64,000 nt of DNA from Verrucomicrobiota bacterium (lineage in GTDB: Bacteria; Verrucomicrobiota; Verrucomicrobiia; Limisphaerales; UBA8199). The position numbers and the translations under genes were made by a program. The stretch spans positions 60,084-124,083 of the forward strand of contig PSRM01000068.1 of NCBI GenBank assembly GCA_003176045.1, given 5' to 3'. This document shows, piece after piece, positions 9,361 through 32,647 of this stretch. Under the pieces are notes generated by a model. It had not been told where the DNA came from, made no database searches, and was given only the letters and a program-made list of their open reading frames with translations. Each line of letters opens with the position of its first letter. Position 1 is the stretch's first letter.

Positions 9361-9996
9361 CTACATCCGGTACTTTGCAGTTCGAGGGCTGATCGTTTGC
9401 GGTTTAGGTTCAATTCCAATGGCTCGAAGCAGGTTTATCGCCTCTGCTCGCTGTTCCGCAGAGGGTTGTTCAGCGGAAAGGAATTGCGCGAATCGGCCCT
9501 TCATGGAGTCAAACTCAAGCGCTTGGTTTGCGCCGAACCTCTCGAATTCGCCAGATTTCGCACGGATAATTGGCAGGACCACACCTTTTTGCGCGCCCCG
9601 CTCTTCCCCGATGACGAGCACAATTTCCTGACGGTCAGGTGATTCCGAGGGAGGCTTCATCGGATCGAGCGGCTCACCGGGTTTAGGAAGAACTGCCCAC
9701 GCTTCAGACGCCATCACGACAAGCCGAGCATCATGTCCGATGCAAAACAGACGAGCTACATCTGCAAAGAAATTCTTGTCGGGAAGATTCGTCAGCCTTT
9801 CTGGTGAGAGAACATGCGAGCCATCGGCCCCGATAATGAAGAGGGTTGGTGGCAAGGACCCGGACATTCTCATGCAAAAGCCAGCGTAAAATTCAGCGTG
9901 TTCGACGAGGTCGGCCAACGTTCGCACCTGGCCTGCCGTTGGCAGGAGTGCAGCCGGATCATTTCCTCCTAAATTGTTCGGCTTCGGTGAGGTCAT
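9361..9996 (-). CDS. hypothetical protein (211 aa)
   Basis: Clean ORF co-directional with the T4SS block. No motif recognised. Confidence 0.5.
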   Translation of the reverse strand: MTSPKPNNLGGNDPAALLPTAGQVRTLADLVEHAEFYAGFCMRMSGSLPPTLFIIGADGSHVLSPERLTNLPDKNFFADVARLFCIGHDARLVVMASEAWAVLPKPGEPLDPMKPPSESPDRQEIVLVIGEERGAQKGVVLPIIRAKSGEFERFGANQALEFDSMKGRFAQFLSAEQPSAEQRAEAINLLRAIGIEPKPQTISPRTAKYRM

Positions 9997-10035
9997 AATA
10001 TATAAATCCTTGAGCTGATTTTTGCGTAGCGATCT

Positions 10036-11100: not shown

Positions 11101-11137
11101 GACGGTGGAATTCTTATTAAGCCTGGCGCGTCAGTGA

Positions 11138-11584
11138 TTACAATTTGAACCGGGTCCTCTGTGAGTGGGCTGGCCGTTCCTCGCATCCATCTTTCTCAAG
11201 GGAGATGCGCTCAAACAAGCCCGGCGTATGCACGAGGTAAAACGGCGGGAGGTAGAGGACTTTGCACCAGGCGGAGGGGCGGATTGCAGAGGTCGGAAGC
11301 GTCAGTTGCGGGAATCGATTCGCGATCCCTTCGCGCAGTGAAACGAGCAGCATGTGCTGGCGCATATAGTCTTCCAGAATTCGATTTGCTTCGGACAGAG
11401 CTTGGTCACCGCCCGGCGATTGAAGCGATTCGAGTTGCTGCGCTATTTCGCCGAGCAAATCGAGACTCTTGATATGCAAGATGCAGCGGATGGGGCTTTC
11501 TGGGTTCGCTAGCGTTCTGGCGACCACGCGGAATTGTTTGGAATGCACGCGTTGGTCGGAAGACGGAGAGATCCGTTCTTTCAT
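11138..11584 (-). CDS. hypothetical protein (148 aa)
   Basis: ORF track only. No motif recognised. Confidence 0.4.
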   Translation of the reverse strand: MKERISPSSDQRVHSKQFRVVARTLANPESPIRCILHIKSLDLLGEIAQQLESLQSPGGDQALSEANRILEDYMRQHMLLVSLREGIANRFPQLTLPTSAIRPSAWCKVLYLPPFYLVHTPGLFERISLEKDGCEERPAHSQRTRFKL

Positions 11585-11743
11585 GGGTTCGGATTCGATG
11601 GAAAAGGATTGATGTAGCGAGAACTAACAAGACGAGACCGCCGCTGAGGAAGAAGGTGAGGGTTGTTTTTTGTTGGGGGCACAATCCTCGAAAGCCATGA
11701 ACCGTAGTAAGAACCGCGGAAGAAGACGGGCGGAATGCGCCGG

Positions 11744-12037
11744 TCAGTCTTGCGGTTCAGCGTCTTTGTCCTGGTTTTGTTCGCAGATCCAGGAGTGTGT
11801 AACGTCCGCGACCTTCGCAAGGGCCAGAAGATCAGCTTGACCACCAAAACTTGAGGTGGACTTCCACTGATCATCATCCTTGTCCTTGTAAATTCGCGAA
11901 AAGGTGACGTTGTATCGGATACCATTGCTGGTCTCGTTCTTCCACACGGCTGCTTTGCAAGAACCGATGCGGACCTCATGTACCGGCCGATCATTTTGTT
12001 TTGGCATATAACTTTCGTTTTGTGTTTGTGTACCCAT
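11744..12037 (-). CDS. 97-aa small protein, possibly a PC4/YdbC-like ssDNA-binding fold
   Basis: Track ORF 11744..12073 trimmed to the Met preceded by AAGGAGG at a 6-nt spacing. The pattern VHEVRIGSCKAAVWKNETSNGIRYNVTFSRIYKDKDDDQWKSTSSF resembles PC4-like beta-sheet ssDNA binders (from memory). Confidence 0.5.
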   Translation of the reverse strand: MGTQTQNESYMPKQNDRPVHEVRIGSCKAAVWKNETSNGIRYNVTFSRIYKDKDDDQWKSTSSFGGQADLLALAKVADVTHSWICEQNQDKDAEPQD

Positions 12038-12192
12038 TCTTTTCCTCCTTGTAGAACCCTGAAACAGATGCATACCACGTTTGACAGGCTAAACCAACAG
12101 ACCGGCGAGATTTGTGCGCGGTCGTTAAAGCCGGAACCGATTTCGGTGGTCAAAAAGCCTTGTAACTTCAAGAACATAGGTTGCGGGTTGCT

Positions 12193-12804
12193 CTATCGCG
12201 GTGGCGAAACCACAGAATTGGAGCGAGCTGGTGGAATTGGCCGCGACGATCCTGGCAAATTTTGCAAAGCACTTTCGATAGAATCCAAACGATTGCTGAC
12301 GACCGAAATTTGATCCCGCAACCGATACGATTCCTTGAGCGCTTCGCGGAACTCACGCGACTGGCTGTTCAGTTCGCGCAGACGGTCCTGTAGCAGTTTT
12401 GCTTGTTCGATAAGCGCCTGCGATGTTGTTCGTTGCCTGTTCAACTCCGCGGTCAACGCATCGCGGAGCATTGTCGTGTCGCGCTCCTTCGTCGCCGATA
12501 TTGAGGGCGTCAGAACTGAGGTTTCCGCCGGCGCGAGATTCCACCGGCCCGTTTGCTCGCGACGATAGAGAGTATGCCCGTCGTGCATCACGCTTGAATC
12601 CCGAGGATCGATATATCGCCCAACCGAGTACGCCGAGAATTGGTCGGGCACCCAAATCGCATCGTTTCCAGCAGCCGGTTGGCTTGGTCTCGAAAGCGGA
12701 ACATAAACAGGTTGGCCCGTTGGCGACGAGCGACAACCAGCCATGACGGCGACCGCACTGATCATGACGGAGATTCTAAAGATGGGGGGTAAGTGAAAAC
12801 TCAT
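12193..12804 (-). CDS. T4SS-associated lipoprotein with coiled-coil C-terminus
   Basis: Signal peptide plus lipobox ISAVAVMAGC. Overlaps the VirB10-like stop by 29 nt. Confidence 0.6.
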   Translation of the reverse strand: MSFHLPPIFRISVMISAVAVMAGCRSSPTGQPVYVPLSRPSQPAAGNDAIWVPDQFSAYSVGRYIDPRDSSVMHDGHTLYRREQTGRWNLAPAETSVLTPSISATKERDTTMLRDALTAELNRQRTTSQALIEQAKLLQDRLRELNSQSREFREALKESYRLRDQISVVSNRLDSIESALQNLPGSSRPIPPARSNSVVSPPR

Positions 12805-13792
12805 GGTTTGTTGAGTGATTTCCAGCGCCGAATTCCGCGGGCCACGCTACGACTCGCATGTTTCCGACTTTGGATTTGGACAGGTCGATTGTCTGAGTGA
12901 CATAGAGATAAAATTGTTTGCCCGCAGCAACTCGCACAAACACCCCCTGTTTTTTGATCGTTTCAAGGATCTGTTGCGCATAAGTGTTTAGCACCTGGCT
13001 CGTGCCGTTGAGGGCTGCGTTCCGCGCGGTCGCAGAAACCTGGGTGCCATAGATTGTTGTCTGAGATTGTTCCAGACCAGAAGCGATTCCCGAAAGCATC
13101 GTAGCTGCAAACAGCTTGATCTCCTCCATGGACTGGCTCCGGATGACCTGGCCGGCTAATCCCGGGCTCCCGTCAGTAATGCCCCATGTGCCGCTCTTTT
13201 CATTGAACTCACGATCCAACGCGATGCCCTTTACAAGCAGCTCTTCGCCAGTTTGCCGCACGATGGTCCAAGTCCCGCTAGATATGATTCTCTCACGAAG
13301 CGTATCCACCTGCGCGCGTCCGTGGATTTCTGCTCCGGTGGGAATAACCAGATTCCCGTCGTGCCACAGGTCCTGGGTGACCAACGCAATAATTGGCGTG
13401 TCATTAGCGCCCGAATCAACAGTGTTGACCAATTGGCACTGAACGAGTCGGCCCATGGGCGCGTAGGTCGAAAGGGGAGGAGGGTTCGTGTCGGCGGGCA
13501 AATCAACATGAATACTAAGCGGGGGAATTGGTTTAGCCGGAGGGTTCGTTTGGACATTGGTGGAAACCACGCGAACGACCTCCTGCGTAACGGCCAGTTT
13601 CGGAAGAGGGGGAATTTTTCGCACGACCGACTCCGAAGTCTCGAAAACCTGGTTGGTGTACAGCTTCGTGCTTTGGTTCGTTTGCCGCGAATGGAGCGCG
13701 CCAAACAGGCCCACAAGCAAGATGGCAATGAGAGCGGCCGCCAGGAAAAAGGCGGGACGCGACCTCACCATTTCTATGAGATTACCGAACAT
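12776..13792 (-). CDS. virB10: VirB10/TrbI-like T4SS protein
   Basis: N-terminal TM segment, a Pro-rich linker, and a C-terminal region (LVQCQLVNTVDSG...IPTGAEIHGR...GITDGSPGLAGQV) typical of the TrbI/VirB10 barrel. Confidence 0.75.
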   Translation of the reverse strand: MFGNLIEMVRSRPAFFLAAALIAILLVGLFGALHSRQTNQSTKLYTNQVFETSESVVRKIPPLPKLAVTQEVVRVVSTNVQTNPPAKPIPPLSIHVDLPADTNPPPLSTYAPMGRLVQCQLVNTVDSGANDTPIIALVTQDLWHDGNLVIPTGAEIHGRAQVDTLRERIISSGTWTIVRQTGEELLVKGIALDREFNEKSGTWGITDGSPGLAGQVIRSQSMEEIKLFAATMLSGIASGLEQSQTTIYGTQVSATARNAALNGTSQVLNTYAQQILETIKKQGVFVRVAAGKQFYLYVTQTIDLSKSKVGNMRVVAWPAEFGAGNHSTNHEFSLTPHL

Positions 13793-15074
13793 GGCCGAAA
13801 GCTCTGTCGAAGCTGAGAATGCGATTTTGCGGTCGAGCTGCGTAAACTGAGTATGGGGCGGAGGAATAGTAATACCGGGGCGCGGGGTAATAATAATAGT
13901 ACGGCTGGGGATAGTAGGAGTACGGCTGAGGCGTCGGATAACAATAGCAGTAATAAACCGGATACTGATATTGAACTGTAGGTGGGTTGACGTACGTCAC
14001 GGGCGCTGATTGGACTGCTGGCGGCGAAGAAGCATAACTCAGCCCGGCAGCGGGACTGGGCTGTGGGCTAGCCGTTGCTGTGGGGTGTATTCCGAGGCCG
14101 GCGGAAATCGCGGAAGCGTAATTTTTGTTCGATGGCTGAGTTCTTGATTCACTGACTGGCGGGGCCGCGATTGTTGGCTCAAGTTGAGAATTGCCGGTGG
14201 CGGGCTGCGCCGCAGCTGGAGGTAAATTCGTGGGGACCACAGTAATGGGCGGATCGGTCCGATGTAACAGCACCAGGAATTCGTTCTGAGGCGATACCTC
14301 ATTCCGCCCGCCATCAGGCGTGCCTGTAACGCTGAAATAAACCGGCGCTGCTTTCTGAGGCGGTACCTCCCCGGTCCCATCGGTAATTGATTGATAAAAA
14401 ACTCGGCGCCCAGTTTGCACCATCAAGCTCTGCGGCAGATAATGCATGACTTGCATCGTCTTATTTGAAATGGCGATGCGGAACACGAGTGTATCGGCAT
14501 CATCGAAGCGAAAAACCTCTTCCGTCCTAATCGTGTAATCGCCGTAATCGTTTAATGTGTCAGGTCTGATGCACTGGACGTTGGCAACAGCTTCGGGATG
14601 CTGTTTCTTTAGAAGCGGAAAGGCTTTCGCTGTGTCCAACAGGCCGAGCAATCGCGAAGGGGTTACTGATTGGCGCGGTGCTGGTGCCGCGGGTGAGGGT
14701 GCCTGCGCGAAAATGACCGAAAACCATGGAGTTTTCGACTCTTCCAGTTCCAAGACATACGTCTGGTCCTTCCAAACAACATTTAAGGTAGCATTCGTGT
14801 TTGCTCTCAAAGCCCGAATCGAAAAAAACGAACTGCCAGGCCGAAAGGACAGGAGGAAAAGTGCCGGTGAATTCGCGTCAGATGAAACGAATGCGCCTTC
14901 GAGGTCGGAGATGGGACTCGGAAAGCGGATGGTTGTCGGACCTGTCATTGCAACTGGAATCCGCGCAAGGACCATGGGATTTAGGGGAAGTTGCTGAATC
15001 GGGTTGACCGATTGACCGGCAGCGGAATGCAAGAGAAAGACCAGCAGCAGGATTTTAATTGTCGCGCGTCTCAT
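13782..15074 (-). CDS. VirB9/TrbG-like T4SS outer-membrane core protein with a Tyr/Pro-rich tail
   Basis: Signal peptide. TTIRFPSPISDLEG...TNATLNVVWKDQTYVLEL fits the VirB9 N-domain pattern. The tail is low-complexity (YYCYCYPTPQPYSYYPQPYYYYYPAPRYYY). Confidence 0.6.
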   Translation of the reverse strand: MRRATIKILLLVFLLHSAAGQSVNPIQQLPLNPMVLARIPVAMTGPTTIRFPSPISDLEGAFVSSDANSPALFLLSFRPGSSFFSIRALRANTNATLNVVWKDQTYVLELEESKTPWFSVIFAQAPSPAAPAPRQSVTPSRLLGLLDTAKAFPLLKKQHPEAVANVQCIRPDTLNDYGDYTIRTEEVFRFDDADTLVFRIAISNKTMQVMHYLPQSLMVQTGRRVFYQSITDGTGEVPPQKAAPVYFSVTGTPDGGRNEVSPQNEFLVLLHRTDPPITVVPTNLPPAAAQPATGNSQLEPTIAAPPVSESRTQPSNKNYASAISAGLGIHPTATASPQPSPAAGLSYASSPPAVQSAPVTYVNPPTVQYQYPVYYCYCYPTPQPYSYYPQPYYYYYPAPRYYYSSAPYSVYAARPQNRILSFDRAFGHVR

Positions 15075-15729
15075 AGTTCAGGGTGAAATCAAAAATCTTG
15101 AGAGGCTGAACGCGATTTCGGAGTAAATCCGGGTTGCGACGCATAACGAGATCGAGGGTGAAGTGAAGCGCATCCGTAAATGGCTTTTCATTGAGCACGC
15201 CCGCGCGACTAAGTTCACCGGTGACCTTTGCGCGGAATTCCCCTGGAGCGGACTGTCGAATATCGATGCGTGTGATGAGCGGCTTTTGTTCTATTTGCAA
15301 CTCATCAAACTGCCGAGCTTCTGCCGCCTTCATGGCGGAAGCCCGATTCATCGCCTGACGTGAAAACAGCGCCTGAAGCAACTCTGGAGCGTCAAAATCG
15401 CGCGGGTTGCGTAAGAGCAACGATTCCGTGGCCTCGAAAGCGATGCGTTGATGTAGCTCTTTAGCCTGCGCCAGAGGCTTCGGAGTGCCCATTTTAACTA
15501 CGCCTTCGTCATCTACCACCGTGACGTTGTCCTTCTGTTGGAGGTAGCCGACCAGAGCGGCGATCTGTAGTCCGTTGCAGAGCAGTGAAGCCAGCAAAGC
15601 TACAATGCAAAGCCTGGCCAGACGGTCTTTGTGGGCAAAGAACTGCGCCGCATTAAGGCGCCGTGGTGGATCAGGCATTAACTCGTGAACAACCGGCGAT
15701 TTGCGAAGCGATTCTATATCCTGGGTCAT
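15055..15729 (-). CDS. VirB8/TrbF-like T4SS protein
   Basis: Single N-terminal TM followed by a roughly 150-aa periplasmic domain. It sits between the VirB6-like and VirB9-like genes. Confidence 0.5.
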   Translation of the reverse strand: MTQDIESLRKSPVVHELMPDPPRRLNAAQFFAHKDRLARLCIVALLASLLCNGLQIAALVGYLQQKDNVTVVDDEGVVKMGTPKPLAQAKELHQRIAFEATESLLLRNPRDFDAPELLQALFSRQAMNRASAMKAAEARQFDELQIEQKPLITRIDIRQSAPGEFRAKVTGELSRAGVLNEKPFTDALHFTLDLVMRRNPDLLRNRVQPLKIFDFTLNYETRDN

Positions 15730-16766
15730 TGCCTTTTGAGTTTGCTAATGAGTTGGCTCACCTCTTTGTCGCCTGTCGGATCGTCGGCACCCGGTTGCCA
15801 AGGAGCCGGAGGACTCGACGGTGGTCCCGGAGGAGAATCAGGAGGGGGACTCTCGCTGGATGTGGATGTGCTGGTCTGCTTCGATTCGGCAGCGCTGCTG
15901 ACGGTTTGCCAACCCCAGGCAACAGCCCCACCCAACGCGGGAGCTCCTACGGAGAGCAGCGTCGAAGCGGTTTGAGTAATTGCGGAAGCAGCACCGGGCG
16001 AACCAACCACCATTTTCTGAACGAAAGCAGGTGCCAGAACCGTTGAAAAGATGATCCAAATGGCGATCACTGTAATCGCAAGCAGATTTTGCAGACCGTA
16101 ACCAAGTGAGCCGCTGATCGAATGCGAAGCGAGGAAGTTTTGGTCCACGGCAACGCCGATTAGGCCATCCGTAAAACAGGCCGCTAAAGCGTTCCCCACT
16201 GGCCAGAGCATGATAGCCAGGATTCGAAGCGCGTGGCGTAACCCCAAGTATGAAAGTGGTCGAACCGCCAGTAACGGGAGAAGCAATGGGCAGACCGCCC
16301 AACATACAAGCAAGACAGCCCGCTGCACGGCGTAAATAAAATACATGGCGGCCATCGCGAGCCAGGAGAGGAGGGTCAAAAATGCGTAAATAATCGCCTC
16401 AAACCAATTGCTGCTGAAAAGTGTGCTCCAGAAACTCTGATTCGATTCCGGCGCATTTTGAGCTAGGGCGAGCTGTTGCTGGTACCGCGCTGCCACGTTT
16501 TCAGGTCTAGCCGGAACGTTCTGCTCAACCCATTGCTGGACGAAGGTTTGGCCGTTGGTGATAAAGGCATTGGAGTTGGCAATCACGAGCACAACCAAAA
16601 AGAGCTTAACGATGAATTTCAGGAGCCCGTATGCCGTCGGAGGACCGCCCCAAAACTCAAAAATGAAGGCGGCCAGAAGCAGAATGAAAGCCCAAGGGAG
16701 CAGGTGGCCGTAAAGAGCGGCGCACGCCTGCACGAAACCTGGGAACGTTTGGTCAACGGTATTCAC
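15726..16766 (-). CDS. VirB6/TrbL-like polytopic membrane protein
   Basis: Multiple hydrophobic segments and a Ser/Pro-rich tail. Position within the T4SS operon supports the call. Confidence 0.6.
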   Translation of the reverse strand: MNTVDQTFPGFVQACAALYGHLLPWAFILLLAAFIFEFWGGPPTAYGLLKFIVKLFLVVLVIANSNAFITNGQTFVQQWVEQNVPARPENVAARYQQQLALAQNAPESNQSFWSTLFSSNWFEAIIYAFLTLLSWLAMAAMYFIYAVQRAVLLVCWAVCPLLLPLLAVRPLSYLGLRHALRILAIMLWPVGNALAACFTDGLIGVAVDQNFLASHSISGSLGYGLQNLLAITVIAIWIIFSTVLAPAFVQKMVVGSPGAASAITQTASTLLSVGAPALGGAVAWGWQTVSSAAESKQTSTSTSSESPPPDSPPGPPSSPPAPWQPGADDPTGDKEVSQLISKLKRQ

Positions 16767-16769
16767 GCA

Positions 16770-17540
16770 TCACGGGCGCACAGAACGCGGATCAGGAATT
16801 TGAACGGGGGTTGTGTTGGGAATGAGAAATTGCCCCAATTTTTGTTGAGCGGTCTTGAAATCTACTATCCTTTCTTCGAGACGAGCGTGTTCCTGCTTGT
16901 CAGCGTCGGTCTGATTCGCGACATGCTGAAGGAGCAGGTGGTTCATAGCCGCCTCGCGCTCACGGTCAATAGCGCCTAGTTCGGCTGCCTGAGCGGCGAG
17001 CGTCGCTTGCAACTTTTGAACCTCCGAAATAGTAGGAGCCACTTCAAGCTGCGCGGTCGTGGATTTGATCTCGTCACGAAGATGTTGCCTCCGAACCTCG
17101 GTATCGTTCATCGTTTTTTCGAGGGCTGCCGCCGCGCGTATCACGGCGTCGAACTTACGGTAGGGCAACCCTGCTCTCGGAGTTGTCTGGCCGTCCGCAT
17201 TCGTGATGCTCTCGCCGATCACGTGGTAAAGGCCGTCACCATCGTAAAGGAAAGCGGCAGAAGCTGTTGCTGAGTTTCGGAGGTCGGTCCAAGTCTGGAA
17301 GTCTCCTTTGATGCCCAAGCTTGCAATGACAGCGGCCGCTCCAGGCAGCTTTATCGTGATCGGATCGCCGAGTCGCTGCACCTCGGTTGTAATCTGATGC
17401 ACCTGCTCGATTGTCAGTTGGACCTCTTCAATAGCTTGGGCCAGAACGGACGGATCAATAACCGGGAGGTCTGCGCGAACGACGAACGGCTGGAGAAATG
17501 AGGCCGACATGATTCCAACGGCGATTGAAAATCTTTTCAT
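16770..17540 (-). CDS. TrbJ/VirB5-like secreted coiled-coil protein
   Basis: Signal peptide, the ADLPVIDPSVLAQAIEEVQ start typical of TrbJ, and its operon position. Confidence 0.5.
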   Translation of the reverse strand: MKRFSIAVGIMSASFLQPFVVRADLPVIDPSVLAQAIEEVQLTIEQVHQITTEVQRLGDPITIKLPGAAAVIASLGIKGDFQTWTDLRNSATASAAFLYDGDGLYHVIGESITNADGQTTPRAGLPYRKFDAVIRAAAALEKTMNDTEVRRQHLRDEIKSTTAQLEVAPTISEVQKLQATLAAQAAELGAIDREREAAMNHLLLQHVANQTDADKQEHARLEERIVDFKTAQQKLGQFLIPNTTPVQIPDPRSVRP

Positions 17541-17542
17541 AA

Positions 17543-17950
17543 TTACTCCTGTATCCGTAGAATTCGGGTCGCTGGTTGCACGAGCACGCCGTCCTCGTAG
17601 TGCTCCGGAATCGTGACTTGGTATTGGCGGACCGATGTAGCGTCGGGCCGTTCGCGCTGTTGCTGTTGCAGATTCCAGTACAATTGCTTCACGCCATCAG
17701 AGCGCCCGAGCGTATAACCATTGGTGTAAGCCCGTTTTTCGGAGCTGGTCTTCAATGCCTGGAAGCCTTCACTCAAGAGGACGCCCCCCGCCGCTCCGCC
17801 AGCGATAGCAACGGGGTTACCACCGCTAAGTTTGTCGCCGAGATAAGCTCCTCCAGCGCCGAGAGCGGCATCAGCCACTGGGCGTTGAAGGCCTGAACAA
17901 CCACACAGAAGTGTCAGCGCTACGATCGAAAGATTGATGATTTTACGCAT
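17543..17950 (-). CDS. Glycine-zipper lipoprotein (VirB7-like role possible)
   Basis: Track ORF trimmed to MRKIINLSIVALTLLCGC (lipobox). Gly-zipper GAGGAYLGDKLSGGNPVAIAGGAAGG. Overlaps the VirB4 stop by 8 nt. Confidence 0.55.
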   Translation of the reverse strand: MRKIINLSIVALTLLCGCSGLQRPVADAALGAGGAYLGDKLSGGNPVAIAGGAAGGVLLSEGFQALKTSSEKRAYTNGYTLGRSDGVKQLYWNLQQQQRERPDATSVRQYQVTIPEHYEDGVLVQPATRILRIQE

Positions 17951-20564
17951 GTTTTGGTTGGGCTGTTTGAGTTGATGCTGGAAGTTCATGGGGCAGGCGC
18001 ACGTATCGGACGGTGCCGCAGATGGGCTGGCGAGCGTCTGTGTGGTAATACAAGAATTCGGAATACTTGGCCCCTATTTGCTGGTCTGGTCGCGGAAAGC
18101 GCAGAATGGCTTCGCGAGCAACACTGGACAAACCCAAGTCTTCCGCGAGTCGTTCGACATCGCGGCGATCTCCGGTATTAAAGATGAACCAAGCTCGGGT
18201 ATTCCCGACCAAGGCTGTGCGAATCGGCGTGTCCGCAATCCGCGAGTATTGTTGAGCGACGATCAGGACCTGGCAGTTGAACTTGCGAAACTGCTCGTAA
18301 AGTTCTCGAAGGATGGCCTCGCCGCCTGGAATATCTATGAAACGCGAGACTTCTTCCACTATCACCCGCTTTTTTAAATGCCGCGGCATGTTCAGGATGT
18401 GGTTGCGGATGCCGTTGATTATCAAAAAACCCACTACCGTTTTAATTTCCTTCGCGGCTTCGGGGATGAATCCGAGTTCAAAATGGACTACAGGGCCGTT
18501 CAGTGAAACATTCGTTGCGCCATCAAACATGACACCGTAACTGCCGCCTCTGCACCATGGAGCGAGCAACGTAGCCAGCCATCGGCACTCCTCCTCATCC
18601 TGGTCCGCCAGCTCGAAGTATTCGCAGAGGGAAGACAAGGTGAGATGTTCCTCCGGCCGCAAAATAGCGAATACCATGTTGCGGACACTTTGCGGATCGC
18701 TTGATTCGAATTCGTCCAGGTCCGCTTGAGGAAGTTGCTTTAGGAGAGCGTTGCCCTCAACAGGGCGCGTCTGCTGGATTTCGTTAAAGCAACCGAAAGC
18801 TTCCAACTCCGAAATGCCTTGGCTTTTGGACAGACGCTTCACTGTTAGCGCAAGGCGAAGAAGTGCATTTCGCTGCTCCAAACTCAATTTCCGCATGTGC
18901 TCATCAGCATGGTCATTGGACAGTCGAGTGAGGTGGCGCGAGATGAGGGCTGAATGGCGACGTGCTTTGTCTTCGTCTGCGGGAAGCCCGATCATCCGAG
19001 CGACGACGGCAATTTGAGTTGCCGCGGCAAAGGAAGATCGCGGCAATTTCTGAGTATCCAAGGGATTGAGCGTTTGGTTTCCATCCACTCGGAAGACCAC
19101 AGGATTTACTCCGTGGCTGCGTGAATAGGGGACTTGCGACAGACCTTCCTCCACTATTGCCGTGAAAGCAAAATGAGGATCGGTTTCAAGCTCCAACTTG
19201 GTGAGCGCAAGGCTTTTGCCGACACCCGGTGCGCCCAAAGCCGTAAGGTTTTGAGGTGTGGATGCATCACCTTCGCCAAGAAACATAGCGGCGTTGACTA
19301 AATTGTTGTCGTTGCCGGGGAACAGTGCCTGAACGGGGCCGGGATGGCCTACAAAGCTGCTACACAGCGGCATGAGGTCCGCCGCAGTCCGGTCTTCGCA
19401 ATAGATTCGGAATCCCTGGTAGCGACTGCCTGTCCAGCCAGGCAGTGTTTTGGTGAACAAATGGCGGGACGTGCTGGGTAACGAGGCTTCATAATACTGG
19501 GCTCCGTTCATGGCCTGAAGCGTCGCCTTGATCGCAGCGGCTTTGTCGCCCAGTTCTTCCTCGGTTTTCGCTCGGACCAAAAGGATAATCTCTAATTCCA
19601 GAGGAACAGCCTCGCCTTCAGCAAGCCGCCGGATTTTTTCTTGCATCTGTCGAACGGTTACGGCCTGACGCTCATCAGGCTTGCGCAAGAGTTGCTGGTT
19701 GAGGCGATCCAGCGAGGATTGAGTCCTCTTCACGATGTCGGCCTTGGCCAGACGGCGGACATGAACTGTGAAGACGAAGTCGCTGAAGGGGAGATAAGTG
19801 AGGCGATGAACGATCGTAGGGAACGTTTCGGTTGGCAGCCGTCTTACAGTAATGGCCAGACAGTGATAGCCGTCCAAAACAAATCCGTGACGCCCCAGCC
19901 CCCGTAACTCAGAATTCCAAAAATTATCCAACAGGGATCGGGTCCTGTCGAATGTCGCGACAGGCTCATAATTGGGCTGGCGAGTGAGCGAAGGATTCAG
20001 GGCATCCGCCCAAAGTCGAACATTCTCAGATTCGGTCAGAGGAGTCACCCGTCCACCGATTGGCGCCAAAGCCTGGACAAGCGACTGTTCGAAATCGCTG
20101 AAAGCGCTTTTTACTTCCGTGAGCAACTGATCATAACGATGCTGGTTGCCTTTTGCTTTGGCCGATGGCCTGCTGTGTGTTTTCTGGTGGTAGGAAGCAT
20201 AGAGAATTACACGCTTTCTCAATAACTTTCCCGATTCCCGTGAGTTCCACTGTTGGATGAGGTTTGCATTCCGCAACGTTCGCGCGGTGGGGTTTTGGCA
20301 CGCCTCGGTGCTACGCTGATAGTCCAGGAGGATGCCAGTATCGACCGGAGCTTGAAACTGAATCAGTTGAAGGTTCATTCCCTCCGGAATTTGCCTCAGC
20401 ATCATCGAAATCGCGTCCTGGACCTGGTTGCATTCAGAATAAGAAGCCGATTGCAAATTGGGTGTATCGATTTCGAAACCCATCGAGATCACCCCCCTGC
20501 TCGGTCCGCCGAAGACGATAAGATTGTCCACGACAAACCCGTCCGGAAGTAGGTCAGCACTCAT
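17943..20564 (-). CDS. virB4: VirB4/TrbE-family T4SS ATPase
   Basis: 873 aa with Walker A LGAPGVGKS. The size and operon position are typical of VirB4. Confidence 0.9.
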   Translation of the reverse strand: MSADLLPDGFVVDNLIVFGGPSRGVISMGFEIDTPNLQSASYSECNQVQDAISMMLRQIPEGMNLQLIQFQAPVDTGILLDYQRSTEACQNPTARTLRNANLIQQWNSRESGKLLRKRVILYASYHQKTHSRPSAKAKGNQHRYDQLLTEVKSAFSDFEQSLVQALAPIGGRVTPLTESENVRLWADALNPSLTRQPNYEPVATFDRTRSLLDNFWNSELRGLGRHGFVLDGYHCLAITVRRLPTETFPTIVHRLTYLPFSDFVFTVHVRRLAKADIVKRTQSSLDRLNQQLLRKPDERQAVTVRQMQEKIRRLAEGEAVPLELEIILLVRAKTEEELGDKAAAIKATLQAMNGAQYYEASLPSTSRHLFTKTLPGWTGSRYQGFRIYCEDRTAADLMPLCSSFVGHPGPVQALFPGNDNNLVNAAMFLGEGDASTPQNLTALGAPGVGKSLALTKLELETDPHFAFTAIVEEGLSQVPYSRSHGVNPVVFRVDGNQTLNPLDTQKLPRSSFAAATQIAVVARMIGLPADEDKARRHSALISRHLTRLSNDHADEHMRKLSLEQRNALLRLALTVKRLSKSQGISELEAFGCFNEIQQTRPVEGNALLKQLPQADLDEFESSDPQSVRNMVFAILRPEEHLTLSSLCEYFELADQDEEECRWLATLLAPWCRGGSYGVMFDGATNVSLNGPVVHFELGFIPEAAKEIKTVVGFLIINGIRNHILNMPRHLKKRVIVEEVSRFIDIPGGEAILRELYEQFRKFNCQVLIVAQQYSRIADTPIRTALVGNTRAWFIFNTGDRRDVERLAEDLGLSSVAREAILRFPRPDQQIGAKYSEFLYYHTDARQPICGTVRYVRLPHELPASTQTAQPKHA

Positions 20565-20889
20565 AAAATGGATGGCTTAACGGCTTCCTTGGTGGTTTCG
20601 CGTGGCCTCTCGTGACCAAAGAATCCAGGAGGTCGGATAAATAGCCTGGTGGCCTGCCTTGATGGAAAAACCGCAGGTACAGGAAGCAACCGAGCACTGG
20701 AACCAGTGCCCACTGCATGGCTTCCAAGAACCCCAATGCGAGACCGTAAAAAAGGCCAGCAAAGAGGCTGAGCGCGACGAGCAACGCGAGGGCAAACCAT
20801 TTGAAATTAATAACCTCGATGCCCCAGAGTGAGCCTTCGTACTGCTCTGCGCTTAGTGTGCGCGTGACGCGCAGCTTCTGGTCGGACAT
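20554..20889 (-). CDS. VirB3/TrbD-like small membrane protein
   Basis: 111 aa with two TM segments, immediately upstream of VirB4 and overlapping it. Confidence 0.55.
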   Translation of the reverse strand: MSDQKLRVTRTLSAEQYEGSLWGIEVINFKWFALALLVALSLFAGLFYGLALGFLEAMQWALVPVLGCFLYLRFFHQGRPPGYLSDLLDSLVTRGHAKPPRKPLSHPFYEC

Positions 20890-20898
20890 AACCCGAGA

Positions 20899-21219
20899 TC
20901 AAAACGTGATGCCGACATTCTGGGCCAGATACGTGATCAAGGGCACCGCAATCGCGATAATGAAGCCGCCAATGATGCACAAGACACCTTCGATTGTGTG
21001 GCCTTGCCGTGCGATCAAGTAGCCCCCGTAAGCAATGACTGCTACGCCTATCAACAGGCAAAATTTTGCCAGCAGTAGCTTGAACGAATCAATGGCCGCA
21101 TTGGGGTCGGCCTGGGCGAGGAGAACCGACGTAGTCAAAACCGGAGCCGCTTTTGCTGGATGCAATGCGGTGTCAACGGACGCGAAGAACAAGAACAGGA
21201 TGAGAATGAATTTATGCAT
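20899..21219 (-). CDS. VirB2/TrbC-like pilin precursor
   Basis: 106 aa with a long signal peptide and two hydrophobic helices. It is the first gene of the T4SS block. Confidence 0.6.
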   Translation of the reverse strand: MHKFILILFLFFASVDTALHPAKAAPVLTTSVLLAQADPNAAIDSFKLLLAKFCLLIGVAVIAYGGYLIARQGHTIEGVLCIIGGFIIAIAVPLITYLAQNVGITF

Positions 21220-27039: not shown

Positions 27040-27954
27040 ATGAGATCGAAAAAAATACTTGGCACTAAACTGTGGCGACCCGACCTCGGAGCAATTCCGG
27101 CCAGGCTGGGCGATCGGATCAAAGGCCAACCTGAAATACTCTGTCGCCTGGCGGAGACGATCATACGGCGAGAAACCGATGCGATTCCGCAGCGCGGCCC
27201 ACGGGGCAAATTCTTCTTCCCAGGACCAACTGGAACTGGAAAGACATTCACTGCACAGACGGTTGCCGATCTGTTGTTCGGGCCTGGGCATCTCATCATT
27301 TTCGATTGTTCAGAATACAAGACGGTGGAGAGTCTTGCCGCCCTGCTTGGAGATCGGAATGGGGATCAAGGCCGATTTGCTGGGGCCTACGAACGGGTCC
27401 CCGCGGGCTGCTGGCTTTTTGATGAAATCGAAAAGGCGCACAAGGAGTTTGTGGATCTGTTTTTGCAAATGGTTGGCGACGGGCGGGTCACCCAAGCCAA
27501 TGGACGAACTATTGATTTGTGCGGTATTTATATTTTCGTCACAAGCAATCTGGGTTCTGCCCAAATCCTGGGCCGACAACACTTGCCTTTCGCTTCCCTT
27601 GAACGCCATGTGGTGCATCACGTTCAAAAGCACCTCCGACCTGAATTACTCGGACGATTCGGACGACCATACGTATTCCGGCCTTTAAGTCGCGAGGCTC
27701 AGTCGGAAATCGCCATCCAGAAGCTAGAACAACTAGTGGACTGGCAGCGCGCGCAAGGCCGGACCATCAGCTATGATCCTATGGTCGTAACGTTTCTGAT
27801 GCAAAGGGGCTTCTCTTCGCGGCTTGGCGCGCGCCCATTATTGGATGTCATTGAAGAATTTGTTGGAAACGCGGTTGCGCAGAACCTTCTGACAGGGGGC
27901 TCGGGCAACGGCCGGTTGCTCGTTCGGGATGGCCATCTTGAATTGGTGCGATGA
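27040..27954 (+). CDS. Stand-alone ClpA/ClpB D2-like AAA+ ATPase
   Basis: IKGQPEILCRLAETIIR, Walker A FFFPGPTGTGKT, Walker B WLFDEIEKAHKEFVDLFLQMVGDGRVT, then IYIFVTSNLGS and GARPL. Together these match the AAA_2 (Clp D2) module. Confidence 0.8.
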   Translation: MRSKKILGTKLWRPDLGAIPARLGDRIKGQPEILCRLAETIIRRETDAIPQRGPRGKFFFPGPTGTGKTFTAQTVADLLFGPGHLIIFDCSEYKTVESLAALLGDRNGDQGRFAGAYERVPAGCWLFDEIEKAHKEFVDLFLQMVGDGRVTQANGRTIDLCGIYIFVTSNLGSAQILGRQHLPFASLERHVVHHVQKHLRPELLGRFGRPYVFRPLSREAQSEIAIQKLEQLVDWQRAQGRTISYDPMVVTFLMQRGFSSRLGARPLLDVIEEFVGNAVAQNLLTGGSGNGRLLVRDGHLELVR

Positions 27955-29396
27955 AAATCAGCGCCATCCGGGACCTCCTCGTCGGATCAACTGGCCTTTG
28001 GTTGGCAATGGGCGCGGCGATATTCCTACTGACAGCTTTGGCTATTGCCAGCCGATTCGGGTCTTCCCATCGGTCCGAAATCGTGGCCCGAATAAAATGG
28101 TTTAGTTGGGATCGGCGCACCTTCTGCCAGCATTTCCTGATCACCGGGGCCACGGGTTCTGGAAAAACGCTCGGAGGCATCTTGCGCCTACTTTTCCAGG
28201 TCTTCAAACACGAACCTCGATTCGGGGGACTTTGTGTGGATGTCAAAGGATTGCTTCATGAAAAAGTTGTGGAAATGGCGAAGCATTTCGGGCGGCCTGA
28301 CGATGTGGTGGTGCTTCAAGTGAGATCGAACTCAGCAACGACCGAGTGGAGGCCTGTGAATCGGTTGAATCTGGTGGGTGACCGCTCAATTCCCTTTGGT
28401 ACTTATGCGCGCTGCGTGGCGGATACCGCCGCTGCTTTGGGGAACCGCCAAGAACAAACCTTTTTTCGTCGAGCCGGCCAAATCCACATCGGAAAGGGTT
28501 TGGAAGCTCTGCACGCGCTCGGGTACGAAGTCACGTTGGAGAACGTCCACAACATGTTGGTGAATCCAGGGGACACGGCCCGAGTCGTGAAGGAATTAGG
28601 CACTAAGGAAACGACCCGTGGATTGGCCGAACACTTCCAGAATTACCTCGCTCAACCGCCTGAACAGTTGGCGGGCATCGTTGGTACCGTGGGCAATTAC
28701 CTCCATTACTTCACGGAGCCGGCGATAGCCGAAGTGTTCTGCCGGGATAGCACTTTTGCATTGGAGGACGTGGACAAAGGAAAAATAATTTGTCTGGCAC
28801 TGCCGCAAAAGTATCAGACGGAGCGTCGTTTTGTCGGGACCTTCCTGAAGCTTCTTTTCTTCACACATGCGCTATCACGGTTTGACGCGGACGCCAAACG
28901 GCGTCAGTTGCAGAATATGCTTCTCTTTCTCGCCGACGAGTACCAGCAATTTGTCACGGCCAGCGAAGATGGGCTAAGCGACCATTCCGTAATTGATCTT
29001 GCTCGCGAGGCGCTGATGGCGGTGGTCGCTGCGACACAGAGCACAACCTCATTCGTTCCAGCTCTCGGCACGGACCAAGCCAAGGTGCTGACACTCAACT
29101 TGAGGAACCGGTTAATCTTCACTTCAGCCGATGAAGACGACGCAAAGGCGGCGGCAGAATTCCTGGGCAGGAAAACGGTCAAGACGCGATCTTGGACATG
29201 GAGCAACGGAAAACGTTCCGAAACCTTTACTGAAACCGAGGACTATCGAGTTAAACCCCATCAACTGCGCAAGCTCCGGAAGCATCAGTGCATCGTCGCC
29301 CATGCGAACGGCCGCTTTCGCAAGTTCACACTGCCTCCGGTGCAGCCGGACGGGACTGTGCCGAACTGGTACCGCCGTTCCTGGTTCACCCTCTGA
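27951..29396 (+). CDS. virD4: Type IV coupling protein (VirD4/TraG/TraD family)
   Basis: N-terminal TM segment, Walker A ITGATGSGKT, Walker B LLFLADEYQQF. Its start overlaps the AAA+ stop (ATGA). Confidence 0.85.
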   Translation: MKISAIRDLLVGSTGLWLAMGAAIFLLTALAIASRFGSSHRSEIVARIKWFSWDRRTFCQHFLITGATGSGKTLGGILRLLFQVFKHEPRFGGLCVDVKGLLHEKVVEMAKHFGRPDDVVVLQVRSNSATTEWRPVNRLNLVGDRSIPFGTYARCVADTAAALGNRQEQTFFRRAGQIHIGKGLEALHALGYEVTLENVHNMLVNPGDTARVVKELGTKETTRGLAEHFQNYLAQPPEQLAGIVGTVGNYLHYFTEPAIAEVFCRDSTFALEDVDKGKIICLALPQKYQTERRFVGTFLKLLFFTHALSRFDADAKRRQLQNMLLFLADEYQQFVTASEDGLSDHSVIDLAREALMAVVAATQSTTSFVPALGTDQAKVLTLNLRNRLIFTSADEDDAKAAAEFLGRKTVKTRSWTWSNGKRSETFTETEDYRVKPHQLRKLRKHQCIVAHANGRFRKFTLPPVQPDGTVPNWYRRSWFTL

Positions 29397-29487: not shown

Positions 29488-32235
29488 ATGATCACCGGAA
29501 AACCACAGAAGAACTTGCGCGACGCGAAGGAGTATTTCCGGCAGCATTTGGCTCAAGGGGACTATCATTCGGAAAGCCAAAGAATCCAAGGAATGTGGTT
29601 CGGGCGAGGAGTTGCCCGCCTGGGACTGAATCCTGCAGATCGAGTGACGGCAGAACACTTCGAGCGCCTTTGCGACAATCTCCATCCATTGACGGGGGAA
29701 AGGCTCACGGTCCGTAAGAGAGTCGTTGATCGCCGCATTTTCTACGATTTTACCGTCAGCGCGCCCAAGAGCGCTTCAATAATGGGCCTGATTATGCAGG
29801 ATAGTCGAATTCTCACAGCGCATGAGGAAGCGGCCAGTGAAGCTATGGCGCAAATGGAAAAGGTGGCTGCCGCCCGCGTACGGCAGGGCGGCCAACGGTC
29901 CGAACGCACAACGGGCGAAATCGTTGCAGCCATCTTTCAGCATGACTCTTCGCGAGCACTGGATCCGCAACTGCACACACATTTCATAATTTGGAATGCC
30001 ACATTTGACCCCGTGGAGAAACGTTGGAAGGCGCTCGAAACGATGGCGATGTTTGAAAAAATCAATTTCTTCACCGAAGTCTATCGCAACACTCTGGCGA
30101 GGCGATTACGCGAATTCGGCTATGGAATCCGGAACACTGCTCACGGATTTGAAATCGAGGGCGTCCCTCAGGGAATAATTGAGCGATTCAGCAAACGGCG
30201 TCAGCAGATTTTGGCTGCTGAGTCGCAGGCAATCGAGGCGGTGAATAAAAAACTTCGTGAAGCGCTTGAGCAAGCTGTGCGCGACAGCGTCGGACAACCA
30301 GCGGAGGTGCGAGAAAAAGCAGAGAAAGCCCTTCGCGAATTTAAGCCCATCACAAAGCTCACAAACACAGGTCGAGCAACCTTGGCTCACACTACCCGCC
30401 AGTGGAAAGACACAAACCTGGACCCGGCCGAGGTGCTTAGCTATCAAAAATCTCAACTGTCCAGCGATGAAATCGTGCAACTCCAACGGTTAATGCGGCC
30501 AGATGCGACCGCCATCAAAATTAAGCCCGAATCTATCTCCGCTAAGCAGGCAATTGATTATGCCCGCGACCACTTGTTTGAACGAAATAGCGTCGTTCCC
30601 ATCACGGAATTGTTGCGCGAAGCCTTAACATTTTCGCGCGGCCGACTTGAGTTGCCCGAGCTCGAGGCGGAGGTAGTGAAACGAGATGATTTTCTTCCAG
30701 TCGGTGAGTTTTTGACGACCCGCGAAACCCTGGTCGAGGAGCGACAAATGATCACTATCACGAATGAGGGGTTGGACCAACTCCGGCCCATCAACCCGAG
30801 TTACGTGCCGACCGCAAAACTGTCCGTTGAACAGAATCAAGCAGTGCGATTCTTGCTCAATTCTGCCGATTTGGTGGTCGGCTTACGCGGTGGCGCCGGG
30901 ACCGGCAAGACTGACCTGCTACATGAATTGGTTCGCAGAATAGAGCAACGCCACACTGCTGTTGTTCTCGCGCCGACAACGTCGGCGGTTGAAGTCCTTC
31001 GGAGAATGGGCTTTAAACGCGCTGCAACTCTCCAGCGATTTCTCCAGGACGAAGCGTTTCAGCACGATGAAAAGGGGAGCGTGTTGGTTGTTGACGAGGC
31101 GGGGTTACTTTCCCGGCGTGATATGCTCGCTCTTCTCAATATTGCCCATCGCTTGGGGTCTCGACTGATTCTGAGCGGTGATACGAGACAACACACCGGA
31201 ATCGAAGCGGGAGATGCGTTGCGTTTGCTCGAAGAGCGAAGCGCACTCCAAGTTATCGGTGTCCGGAAGATTCGTCGCCAAGTGGAGATTGAATACCGGG
31301 AAGCTATTGGTGAGCTCGCGAGAGGCGAAGGAGCAAAGGCCTTGGCGCGACTGGACAGGATCGGGGCTGTGTCAGAAATCGAAGGAGACAAACGGTATCG
31401 CCGCCTGGCCGAAGAATACATTTCATCGATCAGGGCCGGCAAAACGTCTTTAGTTGTAAGCCCGACATGGCGTGAAATTGAACAGGTTACCCAGAGCATT
31501 CGAGAGCAGATGAAGGAACAAGAACTTCTGGGGACGCGCGAAAGCACAATTGTGGTACTTCGCGGATTGAAGTGGACAAAAGCGCAAAAGCGTGACCTTC
31601 GCAATTATCGGCCTGGGTTGGTCCTCAACTTCTATCGAAATACTGCTCGCTTCGTAAAGGGTGACACTGCGGAGGTTATCAAGATGGAGCGCGACGCGTT
31701 GTGCGTCCAACTTCGGAATGGCCAACGCACGGAGGTTACCCGGAAACAAGCCGATTGCTTTGAAGTCACCGAAAAGGTGGATTTGAAGGTCGCGCCGGGG
31801 GACCGCCTGTTGCTTCAATCCAGCGAAAAGGCGAGAAGACTGTTCAATGGTCAAATCGTCACGGTCAAGGAAATCGCTCCGAACGGTGTAATCTTCTTGT
31901 CAGATGGGCGAGAAATACCGGTAGGATTTCGGACGTTCACGCACGGCTATTGCGTCACGAGTTACGCGTCACAGGGACGAACAGTGGACCATGTGTTTGT
32001 GGCAATGGATTCCCATTCCTTTCAGGCGGCTAGCCGCAATCAGTTTTATGTGAGCACTTCGCGTGCGAGGGAACGAGTCAAGATTTACACTGATGACAAA
32101 GAGTTTTTGAGGATGGTCGTCAATAAATCTGGTTCCCGGCTCTCTGCGATCGAATTGGCGGAAAGCCGACGCTTGGCGACCCGTGAATCAACCACCAACC
32201 GGCAAAGTGTAACGTTGGGAGTTGCGGCAGCCTGA
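29488..32235 (+). CDS. traI: MOBF relaxase (TrwC/TraI type) fused to a RecD-like helicase
   Basis: N-terminal TrwC domain with YDFTVSAPKS and the His triad HDSSRALDPQLHTHFIIWN. Helicase Walker A LRGGAGTGKT. C-terminal YASQGRTVDHVFV. Confidence 0.9.
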   Translation: MITGKPQKNLRDAKEYFRQHLAQGDYHSESQRIQGMWFGRGVARLGLNPADRVTAEHFERLCDNLHPLTGERLTVRKRVVDRRIFYDFTVSAPKSASIMGLIMQDSRILTAHEEAASEAMAQMEKVAAARVRQGGQRSERTTGEIVAAIFQHDSSRALDPQLHTHFIIWNATFDPVEKRWKALETMAMFEKINFFTEVYRNTLARRLREFGYGIRNTAHGFEIEGVPQGIIERFSKRRQQILAAESQAIEAVNKKLREALEQAVRDSVGQPAEVREKAEKALREFKPITKLTNTGRATLAHTTRQWKDTNLDPAEVLSYQKSQLSSDEIVQLQRLMRPDATAIKIKPESISAKQAIDYARDHLFERNSVVPITELLREALTFSRGRLELPELEAEVVKRDDFLPVGEFLTTRETLVEERQMITITNEGLDQLRPINPSYVPTAKLSVEQNQAVRFLLNSADLVVGLRGGAGTGKTDLLHELVRRIEQRHTAVVLAPTTSAVEVLRRMGFKRAATLQRFLQDEAFQHDEKGSVLVVDEAGLLSRRDMLALLNIAHRLGSRLILSGDTRQHTGIEAGDALRLLEERSALQVIGVRKIRRQVEIEYREAIGELARGEGAKALARLDRIGAVSEIEGDKRYRRLAEEYISSIRAGKTSLVVSPTWREIEQVTQSIREQMKEQELLGTRESTIVVLRGLKWTKAQKRDLRNYRPGLVLNFYRNTARFVKGDTAEVIKMERDALCVQLRNGQRTEVTRKQADCFEVTEKVDLKVAPGDRLLLQSSEKARRLFNGQIVTVKEIAPNGVIFLSDGREIPVGFRTFTHGYCVTSYASQGRTVDHVFVAMDSHSFQAASRNQFYVSTSRARERVKIYTDDKEFLRMVVNKSGSRLSAIELAESRRLATRESTTNRQSVTLGVAAA

Positions 32236-32246: not shown

Positions 32247-32627
32247 ATGCTTCGCGGCCATTCAGATTCCCCGAAGCTGGCGGAGACTCCCCCGCCGTAC
32301 GGAATCAAGTCCGAATTAAATTTCCCAGGAATCGATCAAGCGTTCTCAACGGACGAGCGGCCGATTGGAATTACCTTCTATCGCTCCAAAGAAAGTTTTT
32401 TCCTGCCCTATCATTTGCTGCAAACCGCCCGATTCAAAGACAACCGGATCACGCTTGTGTTCGCCGTGGCTGAGGTCGTTATTTCCGGTCGGGGACTGCA
32501 CCTGCTTTATGCTCAGATTACGGCGCAACTGGTGAGCCGGGTCGTGGAACAGGGAGAGCGATACTCGGCCGTTTCGGACCTTCTCGTCCACATTCGGGCG
32601 ATAGAAGAAATTCCGAGGGAAAAATAA
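32247..32627 (+). CDS. hypothetical protein (126 aa)
   Basis: ORF starts 12 nt after the relaxase stop. No motif recognised. Confidence 0.45.
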   Translation: MLRGHSDSPKLAETPPPYGIKSELNFPGIDQAFSTDERPIGITFYRSKESFFLPYHLLQTARFKDNRITLVFAVAEVVISGRGLHLLYAQITAQLVSRVVEQGERYSAVSDLLVHIRAIEEIPREK

Positions 32628-32647
32628 GAGCCCCCGTGAGGGGGCTC
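32628..32647. terminator. Bidirectional intrinsic terminator between convergent genes
   Basis: GAGCCCCC-GTGA-GGGGGCTC (8-bp stem, GNRA loop), flanked by AAAATAA on the left and GAATTTTA on the right. It lies between the stops at 32627 and 32653. Confidence 0.65.

Follow-up and report, generated by a model that had tools for sequence, protein, structure and literature searches.

What does a Clp-type ATPase do beside the coupling protein of a type IV secretion system (T4SS) for conjugation? The energetics of these systems are thought to rest on VirB4 and the type IV coupling protein (T4CP), plus VirB11 in some classes. The question is raised by a 64,000-nucleotide stretch of a Verrucomicrobiota genome (contig PSRM01000068.1; the whole stretch is called the window here), in which the gene for a stand-alone, 304-amino-acid AAA+ ATPase (27040..27954, + strand) overlaps the start of a T4CP gene (27951..29396, +). 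We find it to be one of a family of AAA+ ATPases that consist of a single module and descend from the second nucleotide-binding domain (NBD2, or D2) of ClpB-type Hsp100 proteins. Our preferred reading, to which we give about an even chance (roughly 0.5), is that this family forms a dedicated part of the backbone in a conjugative T4SS lineage of Verrucomicrobiota. The ATPase would be a ring, docked on the platform of T4CP and VirB4, with a VirB11-like role and no threading of substrate.

The ATPase module and its pore loop

An earlier note on this DNA had described a stand-alone Clp D2-type module, and domain searches and structure prediction bear this out. Pfam identifies AAA_2 (PF07724; 8e-30, 104.5 bits against a cut-off of 27) at residues 54-207 and ClpB_D2-small (PF10431; 9e-11, 42.1 bits against 21.9) at residues 216-287. 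The top NCBIfam match covers positions 561-838 of the 853 in ClpB (6e-48) and stands ahead of ClpV and ClpA. Lacking the N-domain, NBD1 and the M-domain, the protein does not reach the ClpB equivalog TIGR03346 (163.8 bits against 1232); the third-best match, ClpV/TssH TIGR03345 (1.4e-38), is confined to the NBD2 part and scores 132.8 bits where the cut-off is 885. From an alignment of 38 family sequences, AlphaFold2 gave a model with a confidence score (pLDDT) of 91.7, and its best Foldseek matches are 4CIU, 4FCW and 4FCV (TM-score 0.88-0.89, root-mean-square deviation 2.1-2.3 Å). The predicted fold superposes over its full length on crystal structures of isolated ClpB NBD2 (TM-score 0.89), with 33% identity to 4FCW. 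There was no Pfam match to T2SSE (PF00437) at E ≤ 0.01 and none to Torsin, and blastp with an ATPase probe of the type II secretion (T2SS), type IV pilus and T4SS family returned no match. A hypothetical protein from a Verrucomicrobia metagenome-assembled genome (MAG) has the same sequence as the window protein.

The ATPase residues are conserved almost without exception, as counted over an alignment of 92 family members. The lysine of Walker A (GPTGTGKT, residues 61-68; 27220..27243, +), K68, occurs in 92/92, as do D128 and E129 of the Walker B motif LFDEIE (27421..27426, +). Sensor-1 (TSN, residues 168-170) has N170 in 91/92, and sensor-2 (GARPL, residues 263-267; 27826..27840, +) has R265 in 90/92. 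The arginine finger R206, in RPELLGR (27655..27657, +), aligns to RPEFLNR of Thermus thermophilus ClpB NBD2 and is again invariant (92/92). An arginine finger acts in trans, so hydrolysis requires an adjacent subunit, which suggests an oligomeric ring. The sequence contains no IGF, IGL or LGF tripeptide for ClpP docking, and beyond TSN the alignment with ClpB, a protein that has no ClpP loop, shows only a two-residue gap and no insertion.

The Walker motifs of the module had also been called intact. They are, as are the sensors and GARPL, but that description overlooked that the D2 pore-loop motif is missing. The shortened loop, LLGDRNGDQGRF (residues 102-113; 27343..27378, +), is five residues shorter than the ClpB loop LIGAPPGYVGYEEGGQL and is without the aromatic-hydrophobic clamp. 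When phmmer aligns the protein to T. thermophilus ClpB NBD2, the five-residue gap falls opposite YVGYE (LIGAPPGYVGYEEGGQL against LLGDRNG-----DQGRF); the loop of the window protein reads LLGDRNGDQG and the GYVGY core is missing. In ClpB the clamp that intercalates into the polypeptide being handled, Y653/V654, is part of the D2 loop (residues 647-660 in Escherichia coli; PMC6546751).

The loss extends across the family. In 89 of the 92 aligned members the loop has 10 residues, where ClpB has 15. It is free of aromatic residues in 81/92, and its best-conserved residue is acidic (D/E109, 73/92). The deletion is found in about 94 clusters of a first search, whereas canonical Clp fragments in the same match list retain GYVG, and in all 23 family copies from fetched loci. 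When 1.84 billion cluster representatives were searched exhaustively, 69 of 72 single-module representatives had the shortened loop. Judged on these alignments, the deletion is a family signature. The protein is thus a Clp NBD2 by descent and fold that fails the feature defining Clp proteins as threading unfoldases. Because the substrate-gripping loop is missing across the family, we do not read the protein as an unfoldase; it is probably a docking or remodelling ATPase.

Other Clp-D2 architectures came up in the same searches. Top matches of about 1,000 amino acids that aligned in three stretches were considered as fusions of the family and ruled out: each contains D2 modules in tandem, their loops are of the canonical type (SPPGYV), and their scores are additive. 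In proteins P0284-P0288, P0290-P0293 and P0295 (700-1300 amino acids), Clp-D2 modules are repeated in tandem two or three times and have pore loops that are canonical or nearly so; several such tandem proteins have signal-peptide-like N-termini, and this unusual architecture is unrelated to the T4SS family. A separate Clp-D2-like group (P0110, P0111 and P0115-P0117; 270-497 amino acids, labelled ClpC by JGI) has a different, seven-residue pore-loop deletion (ARLITPSPA-------GTSL).

Gene neighbourhood and spread of the family

The earlier note had read an ATGA overlap between the stop codon of the ATPase gene and the start codon of the T4CP gene, with a relaxase gene downstream, and both are confirmed in the sequence. 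The junction is gtgcg-ATGA-aaatc (in full gtgcgATGAaaatc), an arrangement of translational coupling in which the TGA stop of the ATPase gene shares 4 bp with the ATG of the T4CP gene (27951..27954, +). The VirD4/TrwB-type T4CP has 481 amino acids, one N-terminal transmembrane segment (hydrophobic residues 14-34) and the Walker A motif GATGSGKT at residues 66-73. It matches Pfam T4SS-DNA_transf (3e-18; 66.4 bits, cut-off 20.1), TrwB_AAD_bind (3e-12; 46.7 bits, cut-off 20.5) and TraG-D_C, and has at least 474 homologous clusters. The relaxase (29488..32235, +; 915 amino acids) is of MobF/TrwC type, fused to a superfamily 1B (SF1B) helicase (NCBIfam MobF NF041492, 208.9 bits against a cut-off of 100; Pfam TrwC 7.6e-73 and AAA_30 1.8e-37).

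The family comprises at least 69 clusters at 50% identity, and every family locus that has enough flank is a T4SS locus. Sampling anchored on the ATPase or on the T4CP is biased; the unbiased sample, anchored on VirB4, consists of three loci. Across the fetched loci compared with the window (labels such as L001 and L087), the gene takes three positions: overlapped with the T4CP gene, at the end of the mating-pair formation (MPF) operon after VirB10, or divergent from the start of that operon. It precedes the T4CP gene with a 4-bp overlap in 13 loci, among them L001, L087 and L088 (43-57% identity to the window protein), where a TrwC relaxase gene follows. All the coupled junctions that were read (12/12) have an ATGA or GTGA overlap; the ATPases of these loci are 42-62% identical to that of the window. 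The order is flipped in one further locus, L089 (40%), in which the T4CP gene comes first, the overlap is again ATGA and the adjoining relaxase is of the PF03432 type.

The more diverged copies accompany MPF genes. In L003/L004 and L090 (41% identity) the gene diverges from the start of the MPF operon. In L005, L091 and L092 (34-37%) it lies at the end of that operon, and the order VirB10, an open reading frame (ORF) of about 200 amino acids (P203), ATPase recurs in four loci (L005, L091, L092 and L008). The small ORFs 5' of the ATPase gene in MPF-linked layouts have no informative Pfam match; those of 157, 158 and 162 amino acids (L003, L090 and L007) are related to one another.

A sample of 80 metagenome loci anchored on the T4CP gives the view from the other gene. 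Relatives of the window T4CP at 55% identity or more have an overlapped upstream ATPase gene in 7/7 cases. In the sister T4CP clade (46-52% identity), a ParA/MinD-like ATPase gene and an ORF of about 118 amino acids that overlaps the T4CP start occupy this place, with the TrwC relaxase gene divergent; examples are L112:8677-9920, L116:8947-10004 and L166:6391-7850, with some 60 further loci between L099 and L172. The Clp-type gene is seen in this clade only where MPF genes are in view or nearby (L121, L126 and L166; partial in L150). Among the VirB4-anchored loci it is present in two of three, divergent from the MPF operon in L175 and in the order ATPase, T4CP, TrwC in L177.

Pairwise identities of the ATPase and of the T4CP correlate over 16 loci (r=0.83, Mantel p ~2e-4), as expected of co-inherited backbone genes. 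Where the earlier note had proposed a neighbourhood survey, the coupling to the T4CP gene proves real and conserved in related elements. Pairing with the T4CP as such stands for the clade of the window, with its overlap, and does not extend to the diverged elements, which carry the gene at the ends of MPF operons, or to the sister clade with its ParA-like ATPase. We conclude that the link of the ATPase is to the entire T4SS, and that direct coupling to the T4CP marks one clade and one flipped case.

All hosts known from named records are Verrucomicrobiota: unclassified Verrucomicrobia, Limisphaerales, Verrucomicrobiales, an Opitutus MAG (L007) and an Akkermansia muciniphila MAG (L008), the last with the order VirB10, P203 ORF, ATPase. 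Two complete plasmids from cultured Opitutaceae, one of bacterium TAV5 and one of Termitidicoccus mucosus, also carry a member of the family. A contig scan with the family alignment, in which Walker A and B peptides served as patterns, was dominated by canonical ClpB, the only family members being L007 and L008. A tblastn search of PLSDB with the ATPase gave only ClpB/ClpV-type proteins among the best 40 of 2,072 matches; the two Opitutaceae plasmid copies were found by profile search of records reached through T4CP and VirB4 matches. The T4SS lineage is nearly absent from PLSDB. MOB-suite/PLSDB typing lists the two plasmids, CP007054.1 and NZ_CP109797.1, as 'mobilizable' and 'non-mobilizable', although both encode homologues of VirB4, the T4CP and the relaxase: in standard typing schemes this lineage goes unrecognised as conjugative.

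Both plasmids have features of their own. On the TAV5 plasmid (CP007054.1) the family member OPIT5_00010 (L174:1049-2101) appears circularly permuted, with the C-terminal part of D2-small and its sensor-2 motif ELGARPM at residues 13-71, before the large AAA+ domain at 114-346. It retains the pore-loop deletion, has a 4-bp overlap with a 173-amino-acid ORF, adjoins RepA and lies about 15 kb from the T4CP gene. The 859-amino-acid T4CP of this plasmid was considered as an ATPase-T4CP fusion and ruled out, as it has no Pfam AAA_2 domain. The Termitidicoccus mucosus plasmid (L178/L179, NZ_CP109797.1) looks like a head-to-tail duplication, the same proteins recurring about 51 kb apart (WP_342751124.1 and a VapC/Phd pair, for example), and has many frameshift-split genes, including those for the ATPase, the relaxase and T2SS-type ATPases; the duplication is probably an assembly artefact.

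A proposed VirB11-like role and the alternatives to it

A third ATPase of the VirB11 type is missing from the window, as the earlier note had held: a six-frame Walker A scan of the 64 kb found none, and the P-loop ORFs are the AAA+ protein, the T4CP, the relaxase helicase, VirB4, an SMC/PbeC-like protein and ParA. No VirB11/PilT-type ATPase was found in the other loci probed that bear the AAA+ gene (about 490 kb in all) except on the TAV5 plasmid, where about 10 kb separate the T2SSE-type genes from VirB4 and about 50 kb separate them from the AAA+ gene. A VirB11-like role would fit both this lack of a VirB11 gene adjoining the T4SS genes and the place of the ATPase gene after virB10 in four loci.

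Under this reading the ATPase would assemble into a ring, probably a hexamer, as the arginine finger would require. In the clade of the window, translational coupling would have it made in fixed proportion with the T4CP. The ring would dock, on the cytoplasmic side, on the energising platform that T4CP and VirB4 form, and its binding and hydrolysis of ATP would assemble, gate or recycle that platform. Its action may be comparable to that of the peripheral hexameric VirB11 in MPF-T systems, and the relaxase would be neither threaded nor unfolded in the manner of Clp proteins. VirB11 also interacts with the T4CP (VirD4). Its hexamers dock dynamically under VirB4 (PMC12857230).

Several points weigh against this role. 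Only 19% of systems other than MPF-T have VirB11 (PMC4027160), and it is dispensable in systems of the F type and of Gram-positive bacteria (PMC12857230). As most systems outside MPF-T work without VirB11 and without a substitute, a VirB11-like role is not required. The suggestion in the earlier note that the protein replaces a missing third ATPase thus keeps some positional support in the four virB10-linked loci and loses its premise, the absence of VirB11 being commonplace and leaving no gap; the protein may be an additional, lineage-specific ATPase with nothing to replace. About 16 well-flanked loci of the sister clade have no AAA+ gene within 5-10 kb, which indicates that this type of T4CP needs no adjoining AAA+ gene; VirB4 is likewise not in view in these loci, and the MPF operon is out of view in most loci of the clade. 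The third VirB4-anchored locus, the truncated-looking L176, has neither the AAA+ gene nor T4CP or VirB10 genes in view. Adjacency and coupling establish co-expression, and not contact of the ATPase with the T4CP or VirB4, and the oligomeric state is suggested by motifs. Finally, other loops, such as the D2' loop, could still engage substrate despite the loss of the tyrosine loop.

The resemblance to VirB11, TrwD and DotB lies in the nature of a soluble, presumably hexameric accessory ATPase encoded with a T4SS. The proteins are not homologous: VirB11 is a two-domain ATPase of the RecA/PilT superfamily (T2SSE), and the window protein belongs to the Clp clade, so that functional equivalence would be an analogy drawn from position and from the absence of VirB11. 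Compared with NBD2 of ClpB and Hsp104, the family shares the full-length fold, Walker A and B, sensor-1, the arginine finger, the GARP of sensor-2 and D2-small; it differs in standing alone at 304 amino acids, in the deleted GYVGY core, and in occurring in T4SS loci only and not as a housekeeping chaperone. A precedent within the Clp family is ClpV/TssH of the type VI secretion system, likewise a Clp-family AAA+ protein dedicated to a secretion machine. ClpV, however, is a full two-ring Hsp100 whose N-domain recognises the contracted sheath and whose retained pore loops thread and disassemble it, whereas the protein here is a single ring module, without pore-loop clamp or N-domain, in the context of a T4SS. 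The eukaryotic torsins, of the endoplasmic reticulum and nuclear envelope, are also single-module relatives of Clp/Hsp100 NBD2. Their pore loop lacks the aromatic residue, and they are considered to remodel their partners and not to thread them. They have no arginine finger of their own, which LAP1 or LULL1 supplies, whereas the present family keeps the invariant R206; kingdom and context also differ.

One alternative would place the protein with the DNA-processing (Dtr) functions, as an accessory outside the machine itself, for example recruiting or remodelling the complex of relaxase and origin of transfer (oriT) and loading it onto the T4CP, in the place of TrwA or of ParA-like accessories of the VirC1 or TraL type. 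We regard this as rather doubtful, although the gene order invites it: the ATPase gene is the first of the ATPase-T4CP-relaxase operon in the clade of the window, as trwA is the first of the trwABC operon of R388, the sister T4CP clade has its ParA/MinD-like ATPase gene and small ORF in that slot, and coupling to the T4CP gene is retained even in the flipped order. Like the ParA-like accessories, the protein is an NTPase encoded directly upstream of, and overlapping, the T4CP gene. But where the Dtr and MPF modules are apart, the gene stays with the MPF genes (L092, L008, L175, L003 and L090). The ParA-like proteins, moreover, have an unrelated ParA/MinD fold with a deviant Walker A motif, and they occur together with the AAA+ protein in L166 and L126, so that the two are neither alternatives nor substitutes. 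The acidic loop residue D/E109 (73/92) speaks against DNA binding in the pore.

An unfoldase, as first proposed, would be a Clp-type ring that unfolds the TrwC-like relaxase or effectors and passes the polypeptide, with its attached single-stranded DNA, to the T4CP for export. There is a place for such a motor, as relaxases need at least partial unfolding to pass the T4SS (PMC5826034) and the motor responsible is not established (PMC12857230); the family descends from a bona fide threading motor, and in 13 loci its gene sits with the T4CP and relaxase genes only. We nevertheless judge this role unlikely. The family-wide deletion takes five residues from the very loop that holds the Y653/V654 clamp in ClpB (PMC6546751), with the aromatic-hydrophobic pair lost and no aromatic residue in 81/92, and there is no N-domain, NBD1 or M-domain to recruit a substrate or adaptor. 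In diverged elements the gene goes with the MPF operon, apart from the relaxase, and in L089 it adjoins a relaxase of a different family.

A bolder version of the VirB11 comparison is quite improbable in our estimate. Here the ATPase ring would be stacked coaxially on the T4CP hexamer as a split two-tier motor, like the NBD1 and NBD2 tiers of ClpB, with the T4CP as the translocating pore and the AAA+ ring providing force or gating for the relaxase and its single-stranded DNA, a non-orthologous replacement of VirB11. If it were true, the long-standing question of what energises or unfolds the relaxase could be tested directly in a T4SS lineage that spans the phylum and had not been classified before.

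That the protein is cargo hitch-hiking beside the T4CP gene (a fragment of a stress chaperone, a defence or anti-defence ATPase, or a decaying Clp remnant) is very improbable, for although its AAA+ core weakly matches PDC-M37B and DolB in PADLOC (E 4e-17 to 3e-12, residues 59-175 only), the element carries ArdC anti-restriction and defence genes (PbeC-like, AbiU) and in L001 the gene comes after ArdC, those scores fall far below the similarity to ClpB and concern the generic AAA+ core only, all informative loci, which range over 34-76% identity, several orders of the genes and no fewer than four genera of Verrucomicrobiota, are T4SS loci, the 4-bp overlap with a T4CP or MPF gene is conserved, the ATPase co-diverges with the T4CP, and its invariant catalytic residues show that it is not decaying.

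Returning to the dedicated T4SS component that we favour, the comparative evidence makes the protein look like a fourth kind of T4SS ATPase, a recruit from the Clp lineage minus its threading loop. Accessory T4SS ATPases and Clp-derived ATPases of secretion systems are both known; their combination and the single ring without a pore loop are new. The earlier note knew of no canonical T4SS that pairs its T4CP with a Clp-type protein, and we likewise found no description of a Clp-type T4SS component in the open-access literature, that on Akkermansia conjugative elements included, though absence there is not proof of absence. Neither a 2014 survey of class-specific T4SS components (PMC4027160) nor a 2025 nomenclature review (PMC12857230) mentions Clp or Verrucomicrobia. 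The family is of use for annotating conjugative elements in Verrucomicrobiota, including human-gut Akkermansia. It would also be a natural example of a Clp NBD2 working as a single ring without the pore-loop clamp, and a way to study the cooperation of accessory ATPases and the coupling protein.

Other features of the window element and related loci

The operon that begins with the ATPase gene ends with a conserved ORF of 126 amino acids (32247..32627, +). It has no Pfam match, and homologues (31-51% identity) lie directly 3' of the relaxase gene in L001, L087, L088, L093, L096 and L097; in L098 and L100 they are close by. A G+C-rich hairpin follows, GAGCCCCC-TCAC-GGGGGCTC (32628..32647), which with its flanking T and A tracts resembles a terminator and is common to the convergent ArdC gene. 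A promoter scan of 26500-33000 found no sigma-70-like site, which is uninformative for Verrucomicrobiota, and there is no convincing oriT-like inverted repeat upstream of the ATPase gene.

The MPF operon of the same element occupies 9361..21219 on the - strand. Pfam and NCBIfam identify in it a VirB4/TraC-like ATPase (17943-20564), a VirB5/TrbJ-like protein (16770-17540) and VirB10/TrbI (12776-13792). It also contains a conserved ORF of 203 amino acids (P203; 12193-12804, -), which is homologous to the ORF 5' of the ATPase gene in L005, L091, L092 and L008. The window further encodes ArdC, ParAB and defence genes, and the element is plasmid-like or like an integrative conjugative element (ICE).

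Between the MPF operon and the operon of the ATPase, T4CP and relaxase lies a conserved three-gene module (21375-26870) that is also found at L001:102-5111. It encodes a sigma-70 region-4 protein (21375-22004, -), a DUF4384 protein (22066-23175) and a TPR-CHAT protease-like protein of 1232 amino acids (23172-26870) with a weak match to Csx29; in L177 the equivalent place holds a sigma factor and a NACHT/HEAT protein. Its role in these elements may lie in regulation or in conflict.

Defence-type cargo adjoins the T4SS at 4415-8632 (-) of the window, with a PbeC/DndD-like SMC ATPase (4415-6661, -; PADLOC PbeC 1e-55) and an AIPR/AbiU protein (6773-8632, -; AbiU 6e-29). In L176 a CBASS-like set (SMODS cyclase, E2-CBASS and patatin; 19429-22291) adjoins the truncated-looking MPF operon. 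The window also contains an ORF of 1719 amino acids at 52378-57537 (-).

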